From: Saccostrea echinata
Lineage: Eukaryota
Assembly (NCBI RefSeq): GCF_033153115.1
Contig: NW_026889754.1
Location: 4,960,001 to 5,024,000 of the forward strand
Direction of reading: 5' to 3'
DNA: 64,000 bases
Shown piece after piece: positions 24,134 through 62,001 of this stretch. Each line of letters opens with the position of its first letter. Within the stretch, counting starts at the first letter, position 1. A program made the translations under genes and the position numbers. Below the pieces are notes generated by a model, which searched no databases, was not told the DNA's origin, and saw only the letters and a program-made list of their open reading frames with translations.

Positions 24134-24604
24134 ATGGAATGTTTAAGCTCAGAGTATCGTTGGAAAATGCAAGAGCATACAGGTTCCACTAAAAAAGGAG
24201 AATGGATGAAAAACAAAGAGGAATGCATCCAAGATTTCATGGATAAGAATCCTGGAGAAACAGGACTCAATGATGTGTACCTGTATAAGAGATTCAAATT
24301 ACCGGACCATGAATGTGCACAACTCATAGTATTATTATTAGGGTCATGGGAACCCCAGTATCAGGAATTCAAATGGAAAGTAAAATACGTCTTGGCTCAC
24401 AAAACAGAGGCACCAGCAAGGACCTGGATTCAAGGAAAATGGATGGAAGAAGTCCGAGATTGTATCAAAGATTATGTAAAGAAAGTGCTCAGAGAAGGAT
24501 ACGACATCATGGACTGTGCTTGTGAAACAGAATATTTGTACATGAGGCGAACTTTTCCTATTCAAAAAGAACTATGCCAAAGTATTCCATGTTTGTTATT
24601 TTAA
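24134..24604 (+). CDS. Accessory protein A (unknown; internal two-fold repeat; paralog of 25997-26485)
   Basis: Intact 156-aa ORF with upstream TATA (24072) and downstream AATAAA; alignable to ORF 25997. Confidence 0.75.
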   Translation: MECLSSEYRWKMQEHTGSTKKGEWMKNKEECIQDFMDKNPGETGLNDVYLYKRFKLPDHECAQLIVLLLGSWEPQYQEFKWKVKYVLAHKTEAPARTWIQGKWMEEVRDCIKDYVKKVLREGYDIMDCACETEYLYMRRTFPIQKELCQSIPCLLF

Positions 24605-24660
24605 TGTTATTATTGTTGTGAATTAAACCTAAGAAAAAAAAAATAAATTCTGGTGTTGTT

Positions 24661-24705
24661 GGTTTTTCCGCATGGACTAAAAATAGATATCCCAAGGTAT
24701 ATAAA
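24661..24705 (+). promoter_or_regulatory. Promoter module copy 1: GGTTTTTCC-N7-CTAAAAATAG-TATA
   Basis: Same motifs and spacing as at 25383, 25881 and 30564. Confidence 0.65.
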
Positions 24706-24743
24706 TCTTAGCTTTGAGTTCACTGTGCTCATTTTTTTCAATC

Positions 24744-25189
24744 ATGCCTTCTGTGTGGAGAATGTCGTATTTTCTTCACCAAGAAAATAGTTCCTGTCCT
24801 CATTGCTATAGGCAGTTGAGAGAGATCAGCAGATTACCTGAGTATGACAGTGACGATGACCTTATTGGTTGGTATTGGGGATGTAATGAATGTGGAGAAC
24901 GTATACCTCACTGGGAAGTAGACGATCCCCCTAGTTTGTGGTATTGTCGCTGTGATTGGTGCCTGAAATATTACCTGTGGAAATATGGGGTTGATTTTAT
25001 GATGCCACGTTGGGCTAAGCGCATGAGAAGAAATACCAAGATCGAGAGATGCCCCTCCTGCTGGGAAGAAAACACCCAAGGAAAATGGAAATGTCAACAG
25101 TGTATGAAATATCCCTGCTGTGAAAAGTGTTACAGTCCATTATACGGCTTTCTTACAGAAATTGTCCCTTGTGTCGATTTGAACAATAA
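24744..25189 (+). pseudogene. Accessory protein B: Cys-rich RING-like protein; a frameshift hides the terminal CPLCR
   Basis: CPSC..CQQC..CCEKC, then an alternate frame reads SYRNCPLCRFEQ* (stop at 25187-25189), matching paralog 25473. Confidence 0.72.
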
Positions 25190-25249
25190 TAATAAAACTA
25201 TAAACAAAAACAAAAAACCAGGTCTTATTTTCTCAGCTGAATACATGTG

Positions 25250-25432
25250 ATGACGTCACAATAGGCAGCTTGACGGACTGGAATCGGTGCCAAGTCTATG
25301 CCTAGGTAAAAACCTGGTTTTTCCCCCAGGTAGGGGGTTGAGTGCTGAGAGCGTGCAGTTAAGAAGGTGCTGAGCGCGTGCAGGTTTTTCCAAAGCGACT
25401 ATAAATAGTCAGATCCAAAGGTATTTATAGCT
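25250..25432 (+). promoter_or_regulatory. Internal regulatory region: inverted copy of the pPolB-upstream motifs plus promoter module copy 2
   Basis: TGACGTCA at ~25251; GTGCTGAGMGCGTGCA at 25342 and 25367; GGTTTTTCC at 25316 and 25383; CTATAAATAG at 25399. Confidence 0.65.
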
Positions 25433-25472
25433 GACCTTTTTGAAGAAAAAAAAAAGTCTACCACATTTCATC

Positions 25473-25862
25473 ATGATTTTTATGTCGAGACTGGCGTATT
25501 TGTTTGAGGTAGAAAAGTATTACTGTCATTACTGTGATAGGGAGATGATCCATGAGCGTACATTTACGGTGTATGATTATCCCGGATGGCATCCCCCTTC
25601 TATGGAGACCTGTGGATGTAGCTGGTGCGTTAAATTTTTCACATGGAAGTACGGGGCAGAGAATATGGTGCCCCTATGGGTCAAAGTGACCAGGAAGAGA
25701 GCCTTAAAGAAATGCCTGACCTGCTGGGAGGAAAATACGGAGGGGAGATGGAAGTGCCAACAATGCCGACAGTATCCATGCTGTGTGAAATGTGTCGAGA
25801 ACTTCGTCAAGACTTGCTACAGACTTTGTCCATTATGTAGATATGAAGGAAATAAATCATAA
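25473..25862 (+). CDS. Accessory protein B': Cys-rich RING-like protein, intact
   Basis: CHYC..CGCSWC N-terminal Zn cluster; CLTC-x9-CQQC-x4-CCVKC-x11-CPLCR. Confidence 0.75.
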   Translation: MIFMSRLAYLFEVEKYYCHYCDREMIHERTFTVYDYPGWHPPSMETCGCSWCVKFFTWKYGAENMVPLWVKVTRKRALKKCLTCWEENTEGRWKCQQCRQYPCCVKCVENFVKTCYRLCPLCRYEGNKS

Positions 25863-25880
25863 AATCAAAAAACTGTTGTT

Positions 25881-25930
25881 GGTTTTTCCTGAGATGCTAA
25901 AAATAGATTTGATAAAAAGGTTATATAAAG
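25881..25930 (+). promoter_or_regulatory. Promoter module copy 3
   Basis: GGTTTTTCC at 25881, CTAAAAATAG at 25897, TATATAAA at 25922. Confidence 0.65.
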
Positions 25931-25996
25931 AGGTATGACCAAAAAAAATCATTCATTCTGAAAAAGTTCAGTGTCCAAGTCAGACGTGTTTTAAAG

Positions 25997-26485
25997 ATGC
26001 AGTATCGTTGGTATTGTGAGAGCCCCCTCACTCAGTTTATTTACATGCAAGGAGGGTGGATGAAAACTAAAGTAGGAGCGATCCTGGATTTCTTTGAAAA
26101 TCATCCAGGACATTCCCTGGAAAACGTGTGGCTGGAAAAAAGAGTCAAAATCCCGCATCCTAAAGGAACTAGAGTGACGGTGAAATTCAACCAGCATTAC
26201 GAGCAATATAAATGGGTCAGCTGTACTCATCCTATGAATCGTTCGACACCGATGACCCTGGTTCTGAACGAAAGTCTCTGGTACTCCGACATAGAAGAGT
26301 GTGTGATACATTTTTTCAAGATGGAGAAAAAAGAACTGACATTTCCAGATTATTACGACGTTAAACAGTACGTGTATTGTCGCATCCCCTTTTCCCAGAT
26401 CAAAGACAATATGGAAAAGGAAGGACCTGGTGTTTTGAACAGAGTGATTGATTACAGATCAGAAGAAGAAGAAGAAAAAGTGTAA
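25997..26485 (+). CDS. Accessory protein A' (unknown; paralog of 24134-24604)
   Basis: YRW..G.WMK.K..I.DF..PG..V.L.KR.K.P..KW shared with ORF 24134; downstream AATAAA. Confidence 0.75.
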   Translation: MQYRWYCESPLTQFIYMQGGWMKTKVGAILDFFENHPGHSLENVWLEKRVKIPHPKGTRVTVKFNQHYEQYKWVSCTHPMNRSTPMTLVLNESLWYSDIEECVIHFFKMEKKELTFPDYYDVKQYVYCRIPFSQIKDNMEKEGPGVLNRVIDYRSEEEEEKV

Positions 26486-26590
26486 AAAAAAAAAAAAAAA
26501 ATTAAAATAAATTTTAAAAAAAACAAACCCAAAAAGTGTTGTTATAAATAGAAGGGTCATAAGTTATTTTGTCTCAGTATCTCACTGAAC

Positions 26591-27581
26591 ATGGCCGAGA
26601 GCAGTGGTTTTTACATGACTTTACCCCAGTGATGGGTCCATGCAATCTTTTCCGAGTAATACGACTGCTCAATTTAAAACCTTAATACCACAAACAGTAG
26701 ATTTAACAGATGGCCAATGGGAAGTGGTTTTAACAGAATTGATGTATCCCATATCATTGAAAAACATCACAGAAGAGGAAGCTTATTTTGACATCCTGCT
26801 TCCTCAGTTTTATGCTCCAAAAGTCCAAGAACCTAATGTGTTTAAATGGGACAGATTTAAAATGAAAACCATAGATGCGATGCCATTAAGCCAATGTCCT
26901 GTACTGTTAGATTGGGCCCATACTGAATTTGCTAATCTCATAAGGACAGACCAGAAGATGGAAATTAGGCGAATTCACTTTAGACCGGGGCCTTACATTC
27001 ATCCCATGGCTTTAACAAGTGAAATCAGTCTTGGACTGGGAAGAAGTTTGAATAAATTATGGAAGTTTTTGGGTGATCCTAAAAAAGAGAATGCCATGAA
27101 ATTAACATATCATGACAAATATGATAAAGTGATGTATCAGTTTATGGGGAGAGAACTTAGAAAATATCCCCTTTGCATTCGTTTTCCCACAGCCTTAGCT
27201 TATAAGTTAGGAATAGAAAGTAAGAAGTTGATGCTTCAGAACGATACAGAAAACATGACCAAATGGATTAACGTTAGTTACATGGGCAACAATACCGTAG
27301 ATTTATATGAAAATCTGAAATCCATGTACGTGTATTGTGACTTGATTGAACCCCAGACGGTAGGATCCAATGCCTTGAAATTATTAAGAGTGGTTCCTTG
27401 TACACTCAATCTGGAAGATAAAAAACAAGCTAAATGGGAACCCGTTAGAGCGGAATATTTGAAACTGAGTAAAAAACATTTCGATAGCATTGAGATTCAT
27501 ATCATGACTCCTTTAGGGACTCCCATGCCTTTTTTAAATGGAAAATCGGTCGTGAAACTTCATTTCAGAAAAGTGTACTGA
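26591..27581 (+). pseudogene. Minor capsid protein (penton, single jelly-roll); +1 frameshift near the start
   Basis: MAESSGFYMTLP/SDGSMQSFPSNT..F..WEVVLTE..YP ... MYVYCDLIEPQTVG....LLRVV...IEI.I...G...LHFRK; an extra C at ~26625. Confidence 0.85.
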
Positions 27582-27582
27582 G

Positions 27583-27663
27583 ATGAGTGTACATCTTTTT
27601 TGTTACATCCTATTGGGAGTGATAACTTGTCTGATATGCTGTCTGTATTGTATTCAACCTTAA
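27583..27663 (+). CDS. 26-aa hydrophobic Cys-rich micropeptide
   Basis: MSVHLFCYILLGVITCLICCLYCIQP*; starts 1 nt after the penton stop and fills the gap to the next TATA. Confidence 0.4.
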   Translation: MSVHLFCYILLGVITCLICCLYCIQP

Positions 27664-27728
27664 GACAGGAGGGTATAAAAAGGAGTCACTTGAGTGCATT
27701 TAGGTCAGTCTGACACGAGTCATGAAAC

Positions 27729-28503
27729 ATGCAGTATCATCCCGGATTATTGAGACAAAGAGGACACGGACAGTTTGTCTATCATAGAGGTTTATTACGT
27801 CAAAAAGGACGGTTGGAGCCCTTCCCTTTGATTCTACCGGACTACCACCCTGGTTTAATCCATTCAATTTAAAGAAATTTGGTAGGTTTGTGGATCGAAT
27901 TAAATCTCAAAGAGGAGGAAATTTTTTAGACTTCCTTTCGGGAATGGTACCGAACTTACCTATAGGGATGACTTTAAAAGAAGCTGTCCAATTAGGCTCA
28001 GGCCGGCGACAAAGAGGTCGAGGATTTCTTAAAGACCTAGTCAAAATGGGTCGTAATCAAGCCTTGATTGCCGGAGCTAAAGTAGGAGCAGATGTGATTA
28101 AAAAAAGGAAAAATATCAAAAATGCTCTTTTAACTCATGGACTCAATGCCGTTAAAAATACAGGCTTATTTGCTCTCGATAGAGGAGGAGGTTTAGCTTT
28201 TAAAAAGATGAATAAGAAAGGTCAAAAAGGTAAAGGGAGAAGAAAAAGAAGAAGAGGGCAGAGAGGTAGAGGAGTTTTGAGAAATTTACTGAAAACGGGA
28301 GCTAAACATGCCTTGACTGCTGCTGCTAGAACGGGTTAGATGTGTTAGAAAATAAGAGATCTTTAAAAGACGCTGTCAAAACTCACGGAGTACAAGCCCT
28401 CAAACAAAGATTGAATCTAGGTAAGAAAAGAAGAAAAAAGACACCTGTGTTAGCCCGAGGATGTCCTAAGAAGAGAAAAAGGGGTTTAGATATCTTTGAT
28501 TGA
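27729..28503 (+). pseudogene. Basic core-like protein with repeated QxGxG motifs and an internal duplication; frameshifted
   Basis: QRGHG, QRGGN, QLGSG, QRGRG, QKGKG, QRGRG; continues in another frame to ...KRGLDIFD*; TATA at 27675 and TCAGT Inr. Confidence 0.7.
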
Positions 28504-28575
28504 GACACTATAAATAGGGGAGTCGAGTGAGATTGACCTTCATTTGTGAAAAATCAATCCTAGTAGACAGACATC

Positions 28576-29991
28576 ATGTTGCAACCAGATTCCTGTGCGT
28601 GTGGGATGAACAATTTACAATTGTTCCAAGTCCCCCCGACTAATATTGCTTTAGAAGACTCCAAATGGGAAGAATATTACCCCATTTCTAGTACTTTAGA
28701 TTCGGATACGGCTCCCATTGAATTTGAAATTAAAGGACAAGGAGATCAATATCTGGATTTATCTCAAACGTATGTTCAAATGGTGTGTAAATTTACCAAA
28801 GATGATGGTACTAATCTGACTGGGGCTGGCACTACTTGCGCCCCGGTGAATAATATCTTACATTCCTTGTTTACGGAAATCGATCTCAATGTCAATGGAA
28901 AAATAGTGACTCCAGGAACCGATACTTATCTTTACAAAGCTTATCTGGAGAAATTACTTTCTTACAAACCCAGAACTTTAATGACACAGATGAGAGCTTG
29001 TAGTCTGTGGGAAAAAGATACGGCAGGACACATGGACGAGGTGGGGGTAGCAGACCTTGGAGTGGCTCAAAATAAGACATTTAATGTAAAAAAGGGTGTA
29101 AGTGGTGATACTGTGGTCATTGACGAACCTATCGTCCCAGAGTTACCGGCCAATTCTAAAAACGAAGGATTTAGAAAACGTCACCAGGCCATAAATGATA
29201 GTAAGAAAATAGCCTTGTTTGATCGTTTACATCTGGATCTATTTCAACAAGACCGATTTCTACCCAATGGAGTAGACGTCCGTTTGAGATTTAATCGAGC
29301 TAAACCTCAGTTCTATATGATGATCAAAACGGGAAGTACGGGAAAAGTGAAAATATTGAACATGGTCTTGTGGGTGAGAAAAGTCAAACCCACGGCAGTC
29401 ATGATGAATGGCATTAATCAAAGTTTGAACACTCATAGAGCTAAATATCCATTGAGAAGAGTCGAAGTGAAAACCTTTACCATACTGACAGGAACTCAAT
29501 CTAAGATTACGGATCATCTGTTTCAAGGCCAGATGCCTAAACGTCTCATTTTAGGCTTTGTGGAAAATGCGGCTTTTAACGGAGATAAAACTAAAAATCC
29601 GTTTCATTTTCAAAACTTTGGGATTAAGAAATTAGATGTCAGTATCAACGGAGAGACCATGAGTACTCGTTGTTTTGAGCCCAATTTCAATGAAGATTTA
29701 TATCTGAGATCTTATCTGAGTCTGTATCAAGCCCTGGGAAAATTAGGAGAAGATTGGGCTCCGGACATCACCCTAGAAGAGTATAAAAACGGATACACTC
29801 TGTGGGGCTGGGATTTCACTAAAGATCAAGAAGCGCAATCGGATAAATTCCACATCATAGAAACCGGAAATCTGAGAGTAGAAGTCCAATTTACGAACAA
29901 TACGGTGAACACCTTAAATTGTGTGGTGTATGCAGAATTCGATAACCTATTAGAAATTAACAAACAGAGAGAAGTGAGTATTGATTACTAA
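28576..29991 (+). CDS. Major capsid protein (double jelly-roll, hexon-like), intact 471 aa
   Basis: [52 protein letters not shown]....NPFHFQ..GYTL...D.T.D..GNLRVE..F..CVVYAEF; located immediately before the protease. Confidence 0.93.
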
Positions 29992-30494
29992 TGGATACGG
30001 GACAGTTGAGAGAAGTCTTATCCAGAGAATTAAAGAGTTCTTTTGGTGGAGTGTACCCTGTAGATATATTACCGGATCAATTAAGACCTGGAGAAAAAGC
30101 CATTGTGGTGAATACGGATCCTCAAGATCAACCTGGAGAACACTGGGTGTGTCTGTATGTGAGCAGTCCAGTGGTGGAATATTTTGACTCTTATGGATTT
30201 CCTCCCTTACAGAAAGAAATTCAAGACTTTATCCAGCGTCATGCTCACCAATGGATTTATAATCCGTATCGATATCAAGATTGGAAGACCGATGTGTGTG
30301 GACAATATTGTGTGTATTATTTACATCAAAGACACAAGATGAGAAAGAAAGCAGACGAGTGGTTATTCCCCTTTGACCATAGCACAGCTTTACAAAGAGA
30401 TCATTATGTAGCTCAATGGTTTAAAGACACTTATCATAAAAGACCTACGGGTCATGGACAGACTTGTCAATGTTTCTATCAAAATGTAATGTAA
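29991..30494 (+). CDS. Adenain-like (Ulp1 fold) maturation cysteine protease, intact
   Basis: VVNTDP..PGEHWV (His), YFDSYG (Asp), YQ......CGQYC (Gln/Cys); TAATG stop-start coupling to the capsid gene. Confidence 0.93.
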   Translation: MDTGQLREVLSRELKSSFGGVYPVDILPDQLRPGEKAIVVNTDPQDQPGEHWVCLYVSSPVVEYFDSYGFPPLQKEIQDFIQRHAHQWIYNPYRYQDWKTDVCGQYCVYYLHQRHKMRKKADEWLFPFDHSTALQRDHYVAQWFKDTYHKRPTGHGQTCQCFYQNVM

Positions 30495-30561
30495 TTAATT
30501 GTTGTTATCAATAAAGAATTGGGAAAAAAAATCTGTTCTTGTTGTTTTTTTTTTTAAAAAA

Positions 30562-30612
30562 GGGGTTTTCCCCATGATACTAAATATAGATAGAAAAAGG
30601 TATATATAAAAA
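30562..30612 (+). promoter_or_regulatory. Orphan promoter module copy 4 (downstream gene lost)
   Basis: GGGGTTTTCCCC at 30562, CTAAATATAG at 30580, TATATATAAA at 30601; no ORF follows. Confidence 0.6.
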
Positions 30613-31399: not shown

Positions 31400-31680
31400 T
31401 TAATTTCACTCGGCAAATATTTGATCAATAGTTATGACGTCATGGGTTTGGTATTTAACCCCCGTGCTAAATAATTAGCTATTTATACCACCCCAAAACG
31501 ACAAGATTTAGTTTATATTATGTTTTGAATGATTCCATTCATTTCTTGGACCTGAAATTAAACTTTAAATATAGATATTAAGAAAACATTATTTCTAAGT
31601 TCACGTCATACAGCTTACTATGACGTCATATTGTAAAGGCAAGTAGGATATCTCTGGGTGTAGCCTTAACATACCCGCGT
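31400..31680 (-). repeat. Right arm of the inverted repeat pairing with 10625-10907
   Basis: Ends ...GGGTGTAGCCTTAACATACCCGCGT. Confidence 0.9.
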
Positions 31681-61369: not shown

Positions 61370-62001
61370 TGCCACAGAGTCTGACACATCTGTTTCATAT
61401 TTGGATATTTTACTTGAAAAAGACGTTAATGGTAATCTAACAACCAAGCTTTATGATAAACGTGATGACTAACTTTTCAATCGTCAACTTCCCTTACTTA
61501 TGCAGCAATATACCTTCATCACCTGCATACGGGGTATATATACCTTCATCACCTGCATACGGGGTATATATCTCTCAGTTGATTCGATACGCAAGAGCAT
61601 GTACAATTTCTAAAAAGAGGTAAATTATTGACAAATAAGTTGATGAAACAAGGATATCAGCTGTCTCGTTTAAAGTCATCAATTTGTAAGTTCTATGGTC
61701 GATACAATGACCTTGTCAGCAAATACAATTTATCATTGAGTCAAATGCTGACTGACGTTTTTCATACTAATTGTTAGGCCATGATTTACACACTGAATTG
61801 TCGACGGATTTTTCCGTTATTTCCCGATCATGACAAGGAGCACACGGCGGGTGTGACCGGTCGGCAGGGGATGCTCACTCCTCCATGGCACCTGATCCCA
61901 CCTCTGATGTTTGGAGGTCCATGTTTGCTCTGCTCCTATTTTGTGTTGTTTAATGGACTTTTGAGCTTGAATACTGTTCGTTATCTCCATATATTTCATT
62001 C
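61370..62001 (+). mobile_element. Penelope/Naiad-like RT 3' fragment with 3' UTR
   Basis: Near-identical to the reverse complement of 35417-36028, with a 31-bp internal duplication at ~61509-61570. Confidence 0.85.

Follow-up and report, generated by a model that had tools for sequence, protein, structure and literature searches.

What turns on animal Polintons is an open question; giant-virus activation has been proposed by analogy only, in the available text of one study (PMC8097293). A 64,000-nucleotide (nt) stretch of the genome of the oyster Saccostrea echinata (contig NW_026889754.1, positions 4,960,001 to 5,024,000; hereafter the window) raises this question at a particular locus, a Polinton/Maverick copy on the plus strand at 14746..30612. 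In this element, a first-pass annotation described a promoter module, composed of a Rel/NF-kB-like 9-mer, a MEF2-like decamer (the box) and a TATA element at fixed spacing, that occurs four times before accessory genes and was taken as the switch of an immediate-early regulon responsive to host immune signalling. The follow-up presented here leans, on balance, towards a reading of the four repeats as proximal promoter cassettes that likely recruit host MEF2 and, in one subfamily of the element (A), a host Rel/NF-kB dimer. For the question of activation, the family offers named candidate inputs and predicted transcription starts, together with three promoter variants that occur naturally within a single genome.

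Modules and core promoters in the window

All four modules were recovered where they had been placed. The 9-mer GGTTTTYCC begins at 24661, 25383, 25881 and 30564, the box follows 16 nt on in every case, and AAGGT(T)ATWTA comes after each, so that the upstream part can be written as GGTTTTYCC-N7-CTA(A/T)4TAG. Module 1 (24661..24734, plus strand) consists of GGTTTTTCC at 24661-24669, CTAAAAATAG at 24677-24686, a TATA box at 24698-24706 and the initiator-like word TCATTT at 24729-24734, with a predicted start at ~24731. Module 3 (25881..25958, plus strand) has the same parts, namely GGTTTTTCC at 25881-25889, CTAAAAATAG at 25897-25906, TATA at 25922-25928 and the initiator-like TCATTC at 25949/25953, with a predicted start at ~25955. 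In module 2 (25383..25429, plus strand), GGTTTTTCC at 25383-25391 precedes CTATAAATAG at 25399-25408, which is TATA-shaped too, and TATTTATA at 25422-25429; no initiator was found at the usual distance from its TATA. Module 4 (30562..30611, plus strand) opens with GGGGTTTTCCCC, which holds a full Dorsal-type site and includes the 9-mer GGTTTTCCC at 30564, and continues with CTAAATATAG at 30580-30589 and TATA at 30601-30611. Without a box, GGTTTTTCC stands at three more sites, 14970 and 15029 (minus strand) and 25316.

The core promoters are of the RNA polymerase II (Pol II) type, with TATA and initiator ~30-33 nt apart as expected of that type. The measured distance is 31-34 nt in 10 of the 11 window promoters, module 2 being the exception, and it is uniform for core and accessory genes alike between 15054 and 28542. 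The word scored was TCA(G/T)T, modelled on the initiator consensus, and its chance of occurring in a 19-nt window is 7%. This uniformity yields predicted start sites for almost the whole element. Counted from those of modules 1 and 3, the box spans roughly -58 to -45, and the 9-mer lies further upstream, at roughly -74 to -62. Because the initiator distance marks the downstream TATA as the core, the box of modules 1 and 3 is an upstream element and not a TATA box. The idea that the box is a mere second TATA was rejected for the same reason and because CTAAAAATAG contains no TATA; module 2 is ambiguous in this respect. The evidence thus supports the modules as proximal elements of the Pol II promoters that serve the accessory genes of the Polinton, and it is very probable from their sequence that they function in cis.

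The frequency of the module was compared with chance and with other DNA. The 15.9-kb element holds four occurrences, whereas 200 third-order Markov simulations gave 0, and no full module was found in the 45 kb of host flank in the window. Across the genome (923 Mb), 172 matches were obtained, compared with 0 for the reversed pattern. Among the 100 matches listed, 94 have spacers of the four window classes (a count made by reading the match list), 3 lie in Polinton fragments, 2 in a host tandem repeat and 1 is unassigned. Since nearly all listed matches sit in one family, the 172 reflect the copy number of that family rather than independent origins.

The position of the modules before accessory genes held for modules 1-3. 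Module 1 precedes the cysteine-rich gene B1 (24744..25250, plus strand), whose RING-like C-terminus is a lead only, and module 2 precedes its paralog B2 (25473..25862, plus strand), likewise cysteine-rich and shorter in the window than in other copies; B1 shares 45% identity with the B2 of another copy. Module 3 precedes A2 (25997..26485, plus strand), for which no known family or fold was found and which is 25% identical to its paralog A1 (24134..24604, plus strand). In the window, the promoter of A1 is a TATA and initiator with a decayed box; diverged A1 copies show the full module or tandem boxes there. For module 4 the description failed in the window, where the element ends at ~30612. It is no orphan, and that possibility was rejected, as in other A copies module 4 leads a gene of 166 amino acids, followed by further genes and the right terminal repeat.

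Conservation, spacing and turnover of the cassette

A genome search with the putative capsid, in which 90 of 480 candidates were scored, puts the family at a copy number of at least 90, and capsid identity splits the copies into three subfamilies, A (~95-100%), B (~91-94%) and C (85-86%). The promoter census covers 20 A, 24 B and 9 C copies, with counts given per anchored copies. Spacer and motif conservation was measured in 20 A copies taken by capsid score, from which the window and seven copies found by motif were excluded; 18-20 copies were aligned per module.

The bases between the motifs differ, as had been pointed out. Over the six pairs of window modules, spacers are alike at 13 of 42 positions (31%) and motifs at 90-94% (9-mers 51/54, boxes 54/60), a comparison that is partly circular, since the motifs were chosen for likeness. 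This disparity bears on an alternative, which we consider unlikely, that one cassette spread by duplication or gene conversion, that TATA, initiator and perhaps the box matter, and that the 9-mer and the spacing are passengers. Mere duplication would leave spacers as conserved as motifs across the family; in the 20 A copies, variable columns number 3 of 76 in motifs and 6 of 28 in spacers (Fisher p=0.011), and at module 1 the counts are 0 of 19 and 4 of 7. The test is moderate evidence, because module 1 dominates it, CpG sites contribute and the copies share ancestry. In addition, diverged genome fragments keep the 9-mer beside the box, with the full module and different spacers, upstream of A1, A2 and other accessory genes, and kB-shaped sites stand alone upstream of the IAP and polymerase genes. 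Duplication does account for other features of the family: B1 and B2 are paralogs, as are A1 and A2; an AGATA/TGATA core recurs in many spacers, and many end in GATA or begin with AAAG, which indicates descent from one cassette and makes duplication part of the story. The passenger role would also suit the loss or mutation of the 9-mer in many copies and in whole subfamilies, and constant spacer length is weak evidence of selection because a 7-nt non-homopolymer spacer seldom takes indels. From these comparisons, duplication and selection both appear to apply to the cassette. Contigs from four public runs, which span promoter DNA upstream of the TATA boxes and were used neither for nor against expression, cover module 1 in three runs, differing at two spacer positions only, and carry a C-to-T change in the module-2 9-mer in all four.

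The claim that the spacing itself is conserved was borne out within the window, where the 16-nt offset occurs in all four modules, and had to be relaxed genome-wide. When spacers of 4-9 nt were allowed, 79 matches were obtained (control 1), of which 56 have a 7-nt and 23 a 5-nt spacer; the distance from box to TATA ranges over 4-21 nt. An obligatory composite element would show one spacing with both halves kept, which is not what was found, and the counts indicate that the 7-nt spacing is preferred, not obligatory. The 5-nt form, GGTTTTTCC-AAAGT-CTAAAAATAR, does not occur in the window; in other A copies it makes up tandem arrays. One site of such arrays is the interval between B1 and B2, which holds 2-5 inverted tandem units of GGTTTTTCC-AAAGT-C(T/A)AAAAATAR in 16 of the 17 A copies recovered; the second lies upstream of a minus-strand gene that overlaps an open reading frame (ORF) with a PP1c-binding match. 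In the window, this B1-B2 interval is a hypervariable upstream array (25251..25382, no strand assigned) with TGACGTCA at 25251-25258, GGTTTTTCC at 25316 and TGCTGAG at 25343 and 25368, and it shows inverted likeness to the array preceding the polymerase gene. In two copies (L193 and L197), a B2-type upstream array is found behind the protease gene, and the decamer after its 9-mer is not of MEF2 type; this placement indicates that promoter cassettes move between genes.

The two halves of the cassette have turned over independently of each other among the subfamilies. At the B-gene promoter (module 1), the full module is present in 20/20 A copies; among anchored copies of the other subfamilies, a box lacking the 9-mer was found in 18 of 19 (B) and in 8 of 8 (C). 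The A2 promoter (module 3) has the full module in all 19 anchored A copies; in B it has the box in 24/24 and the full module in 1/24, the kB-like half being mostly lost there. Where orthologous promoters are compared, the box stays within YTA(A/T)4TAR at the B gene (20/20 A, 18/19 B, 8/8 C) and at the A2 gene (19/19 A, 24/24 B). The post-protease promoter (module 4) is full in 17 of 20 A copies, and among 23 B copies 12 are full, 2 have both halves at other spacing, 7 have the kB-like half only, 1 has the box only and 1 has neither. No kB-like half was seen at the subfamily C promoters recovered; C instead carries tandem YTAAAAATAR boxes upstream of accessory genes, including the A1 promoter in 8 of 9 copies. 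Subfamily B has TGACTCAGCA repeats, which we take to be AP-1/Nrf2-like. As far as these alignments reach, it is the box that persists, and the 9-mer is specific to lineages.

Two further observations concern the genes behind such promoters. The post-protease promoter is kept across subfamilies while the gene behind it differs, and accessory genes of B and C in this position (L073:9087-9557 and L070:8593-9228) have weak Viral_Rep matches (E 3e-4 and 2e-3, respectively). A terminal gene with three CCHC zinc knuckles (L051:5335-5961) has a promoter with the 9-mer and no box in A, and the box and no 9-mer in C.

Candidate host factors and rival explanations

The likeness of the box to a MEF2 site held: its 10-bp core agrees in 4/4 modules with KCTAWWWWTAGM, the consensus obtained for MEF2A by systematic evolution of ligands by exponential enrichment (SELEX) (PMC3807682, text seen in part). 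The proposed kB fit proved uneven. Judged by the Dorsal consensus, GGGWWWWCCM or GGGWDWWWCCM in the available text of PMC3009591, module 4 matches fully and modules 1-3 are off by 1-2 bases; the other matches are one site of the polymerase array and the IAP site of other copies. The host genome contains two Rel-homology loci as well as MADS exons. The latter are presumably MEF2-type. The canonical kB pattern GGGRNWYYCC occurs 4 times in the element where 2.0 are expected and is not enriched. Taken together, MEF2 is the likely factor at the box, and Rel is a slightly favoured candidate at the kB-like 9-mer.

Other promoters of the element share parts of this vocabulary. The upstream array of the polymerase gene (14894..15100, plus strand) comprises GGAAAAA(A)CC three times, CTCAGCA twice, TGACGTCA at 15039, TATA at 15054 and an initiator at 15084; it carries GGAAAAACC and GGAAATTCC, two GG-N5-CC forms, and no MEF2-like box was found in it. 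The IAP promoter (19173..19234, plus strand) has GGGGAAAACTCCC, TATA at 19199 and an initiator at 19229. Its site reads GGGGAAAACCCC, the reverse complement of the module-4 site, in all three other copies read, and neither these nor the window copy showed a MEF2-like box. The structural genes had been credited with plain TATA promoters, a contrast that fails in part. The TATA of the putative minor capsid (penton) promoter (26542..26579, plus strand) is TTATAAATAG, found in 47 of 49 copies read, and that of the putative major capsid promoter (28508..28545, plus strand; gene 28576-29991) is CTATAAATAG, found in 45 of 46; both are MEF2-shaped and fit the MEF2 consensus.

A number of observations weigh against host MEF2 and Rel as the factors of an intact cassette. 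The full 12-bp SELEX site is matched by module 3 alone (1/4), and the misfit of modules 1-3 to the Dorsal consensus counts in the same direction. The halves are also often damaged: many internal array units read CAAAAAATAA, in which the 9-mer is kept, the box lost and the MEF2 consensus broken; two A copies have the 9-mer and, after 7 nt, the non-MEF2 word CTT(C/T)ATTTAG; 12 of 20 A copies have the module-2 9-mer mutated to GGTTTTTTC; of 13 A copies anchored at A1, 12 show a decayed box; and 8 of the 23 B copies anchored at the post-protease promoter have lost the box there. The excess of spacer variation comes mostly from module 1, in copies that are not independent. Beyond the family, CTA(A/T)4TAG by itself is frequent in the host flank, where 45 kb hold 8 sites, 4 of which belong to a single tandem repeat. 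The composite is almost restricted to copies of the element, which account for 97 of the 100 matches listed; no host precedent for the pairing is among these. Finally, 80 Polinton-like loci from metagenomes, most of them distant, contained no full module in their 333,536 nt (0.05 expected) and box plus TATA 9 times (4.6 expected). These 80, retained from 185 loci, show 28-45% identity, save one 1.6-kb contig at 73%. A pattern scan of IMG/VR gave 3 matches, none with a TATA-type module context in the surrounding sequence, and the capsid scans of that database found no relative.

Near-confinement to the element is also what would be expected if the module were a site for an element-encoded or helper-virus activator, its likeness to MEF2 and kB sites being a coincidence of AT-rich DNA. 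We regard this as rather improbable. The subfamilies, at 86-94% capsid identity, differ in their upstream words, each of which resembles another host-factor site, and this fits host inputs better than a single element-encoded factor; box variation at orthologous promoters obeys YTA(A/T)4TAR, and the cores are canonical Pol II TATA and initiator. An activator would suit the near-invariance of the 9-mer in tandem arrays near both ends of the element and internally, an arrangement with parallels in viral enhancer and origin repeats. Several element genes have no known function. Of these, A2 is a possible activator; it returned no homologs and no atlas match, and its predicted model (predicted local distance difference test, pLDDT, 77) had no Foldseek match at E<=0.001 (best VIA Z 4.3). 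Protist virophages do rely on helper-virus promoter motifs, according to the text available of 10.1101/2025.10.09.676808.

Host factors might also bind with a different output, namely expression by tissue or developmental stage (through MEF2 in muscle, germ line or embryo, and an NFAT-type factor at GGAAA) rather than immune immediate-early expression. MEF2 is a factor of muscle, GGAAA is the core of NFAT sites, and GGAAAAACC holds GGAAA. The MEF2-like part is, moreover, the conserved half and fits the TATA boxes of structural genes too, and MEF2 has non-immune roles (PMC3807682, in part). Vertical spread of a Polinton would require germ-line activity. This output is nevertheless very unlikely in our view, as the best kB matches lie upstream of the macrodomain-like and IAP genes. 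The variants GGAAATTCC and GGGGTTTCCCC, too, resemble sites of Rel dimers rather than of NFAT monomers.

Under the favoured reading, in which MEF2 and, in subfamily A, Rel act on the cassette, all element genes would be transcribed by host Pol II from TATA/initiator cores, and a portable cassette would place an upstream MEF2 site before accessory genes. Subfamily A would add a Rel site 5-7 nt further upstream of the box. The cassette may have spread by copying between promoters and then been kept by selection, with MEF2 as the stable input and Rel as a swappable one, for which B would use the AP-1/Nrf2-like repeats and C tandem MEF2-like boxes. The targets would include antagonists of host defence. 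For the module-4 gene, one homolog (48% identity) bears the name Macro domain-containing protein, and there was no Pfam match; the gene's six weak PDB matches (E 0.2-1), three of them named ADP-ribose 1''-phosphate phosphatase, are all, we assume, macro-fold proteins. The IAP of the element has BIR and RING domains. An ORF at L051:4408-4908 (minus strand), which overlaps a second ORF in another frame, has a PP1c_bdg match (E 3e-5, under the cut-off), lies behind a 5-nt module array and is present in subfamilies A and C; we take it to be GADD34/ICP34.5-like. Activation of Rel could then raise the expression of genes predicted to counter apoptosis, ADP-ribose signalling and translational shut-off. 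That the four modules define an immune-induced, co-regulated early set, as first proposed, is possible but doubtful on the present evidence. Similarly tentative is the wider proposal that the Polinton wires macrodomain-like, GADD34-like, IAP and RING-like antagonists to host Rel and MEF2 through a portable cassette, with sister subfamilies re-tuned to Rel plus MEF2, to AP-1/Nrf2-like inputs or to MEF2 arrays.

Several known systems invite comparison, their sources having been available in part. In white spot syndrome virus (WSSV), immediate-early promoters (wsv069/ie1 and others) are driven by shrimp Dorsal, Relish, STAT and AP-1 (PMC6683665). As in the Polinton, an invertebrate double-stranded DNA virus has NF-kB-type and AP-1/CRE-type sites before its genes, with host signalling as the driver; by analogy, the Polinton module may work like such ie1-type host-responsive promoters. 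Unlike the Polinton, whose binding and timing are predicted from sequence, WSSV is an experimental case and a large non-integrating virus, and the text available (PMC6683665) contains no repeated Rel plus MEF2 cassette. Antimicrobial-peptide promoters of Drosophila combine NF-kB sites, distal MEF2 sites and TATA boxes bound by MEF2 and TBP (PMC3807682). They share with the Polinton kB and MEF2 inputs on one TATA promoter, and they resemble its capsid and penton promoters, in which the TATA (CTATAAATAG, TTATAAATAG) overlaps a MEF2-shaped site. They differ in belonging to host genes and in their TATA consensus, CTATAWAAGM or CTATATAAAGC rather than CTATAAATAG; the part available mentions no fixed distance between kB and MEF2 sites, and Polinton modules 1, 3 and 4 have a box distinct from the TATA.

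In mavirus and endogenous mavirus-like elements (EMALEs), promoter motifs are common to the giant virus CroV (cited in 10.1101/2025.10.09.676808). These, too, are integrated Polinton-like elements in which a repeated promoter motif sets the time of expression; the motif there serves late transcription of the helper virus, whereas the present element has host Pol II cores with host-factor-like upstream words, and a helper-virus promoter of the mavirus type was rejected. The immediate-early promoter Poshv117 of ostreid herpesvirus 1 (OsHV-1) has TATA, CCAAT and other elements (PMC9661190) and is likewise a TATA promoter of an oyster double-stranded DNA virus, upstream of a RING-finger early gene and served by host Pol II; unlike the Polinton modules, it comes with neither MEF2 nor kappa, each of which occurs 0 times in that text. 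Among papers on animal Polintons, the word promoter occurs 0 times in the available text of PMC8502044 and 2 times in that of PMC8097293, one passage concerning insertion into a host promoter, and no promoter architecture of the element is given. The literature searched, which left most subscription papers and supplements outside its scope, contained no account of promoter motifs in animal Polintons and no description of immune or stress signalling as their trigger.

If the wider proposal of a Polinton wired to host Rel and MEF2 is true, animal Polintons would have a natural trigger of expression in immune or stress signalling, a result whose surprise is limited because viral use of host NF-kB sites is well known. 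If induction, too, is true, infections of oysters could be accompanied by the expression of anti-apoptotic and anti-stress-response genes from many copies (at least 90 capsid matches). The short TATA promoters with host-factor sites may also find use in molluscan cell work.

The element and its surroundings

The window copy begins with AGTAGT at 14746 and is broken off on the right at ~30612, without the right terminal repeat and ~6 kb of the right part present in other copies. In a Pfam profile search, its proteins matched DNA_pol_B_2 (E 2e-23 and 3e-25), rve with chromo, BIR and RING, and the polymerase, in pieces in this copy, together with the integrase places it in the Polinton/Maverick (adintovirus) class. 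The frames of pPolB, IAP and ATPase are disrupted. The ATPase candidate has a weak Pox_A32 match (E 0.0016, under the cut-off), and the putative capsid, penton and protease have no Pfam match; the last three names are our assumption from gene order, size, motifs and the usual Polinton layout. Homologs of the putative capsid are annotated solely as F54H12.2-like, the nearest named relatives being oyster sequences; other oyster Polintons show ~70% capsid identity. Two distant capsids used as genome queries recovered the same family only, and two seeming outliers were subfamily-C-like. The terminal repeats are of the (AGT)2 type, with inverted ends in other copies that match the AGTAGT at 14746. 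With its pPolB and integrase, its putative capsid, protease and ATPase genes, its (AGT)2 ends and its accessory IAP, the element resembles the animal Polintons/Mavericks (adintoviruses) described in the available portions of PMC8502044 and PMC8097293.

A few minor features were noted along the way. Between the box and TATA of module 3 lies a GATA-like TGATAA (25910-25915), which reads GGATAAG or AGATAAG in other copies and is clear at the module-3 promoter only. A further copy of modules 1-3 occurs at contig positions 5026207-5027474, ~2 kb beyond the right edge of the window. On the minus strand at 14271-14745, a gag-like frame with a CCHC zinc knuckle abuts the left end of the Polinton, which therefore seems to be inserted into a retroelement fragment. 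An inverted repeat pair of 283 nt (94%), at 10625-10907 and 31400-31680, flanks the entire element, at distances of 4 kb and 0.8 kb, and is distinct from its terminal repeat. A host tandem repeat of 156 nt (4198-5261) contains CTAAAAATAG in 4 units, and a variant of it gives two chance full-module matches elsewhere in the genome (L002, L003). Arrays of a ~168-nt satellite-like repeat occupy 6400-7970 and 33078-33830. Finally, a 402-nt inverted pair that is 98% identical (35417-35818 and 61599-62000), of which more partial copies exist, is likely another mobile element.

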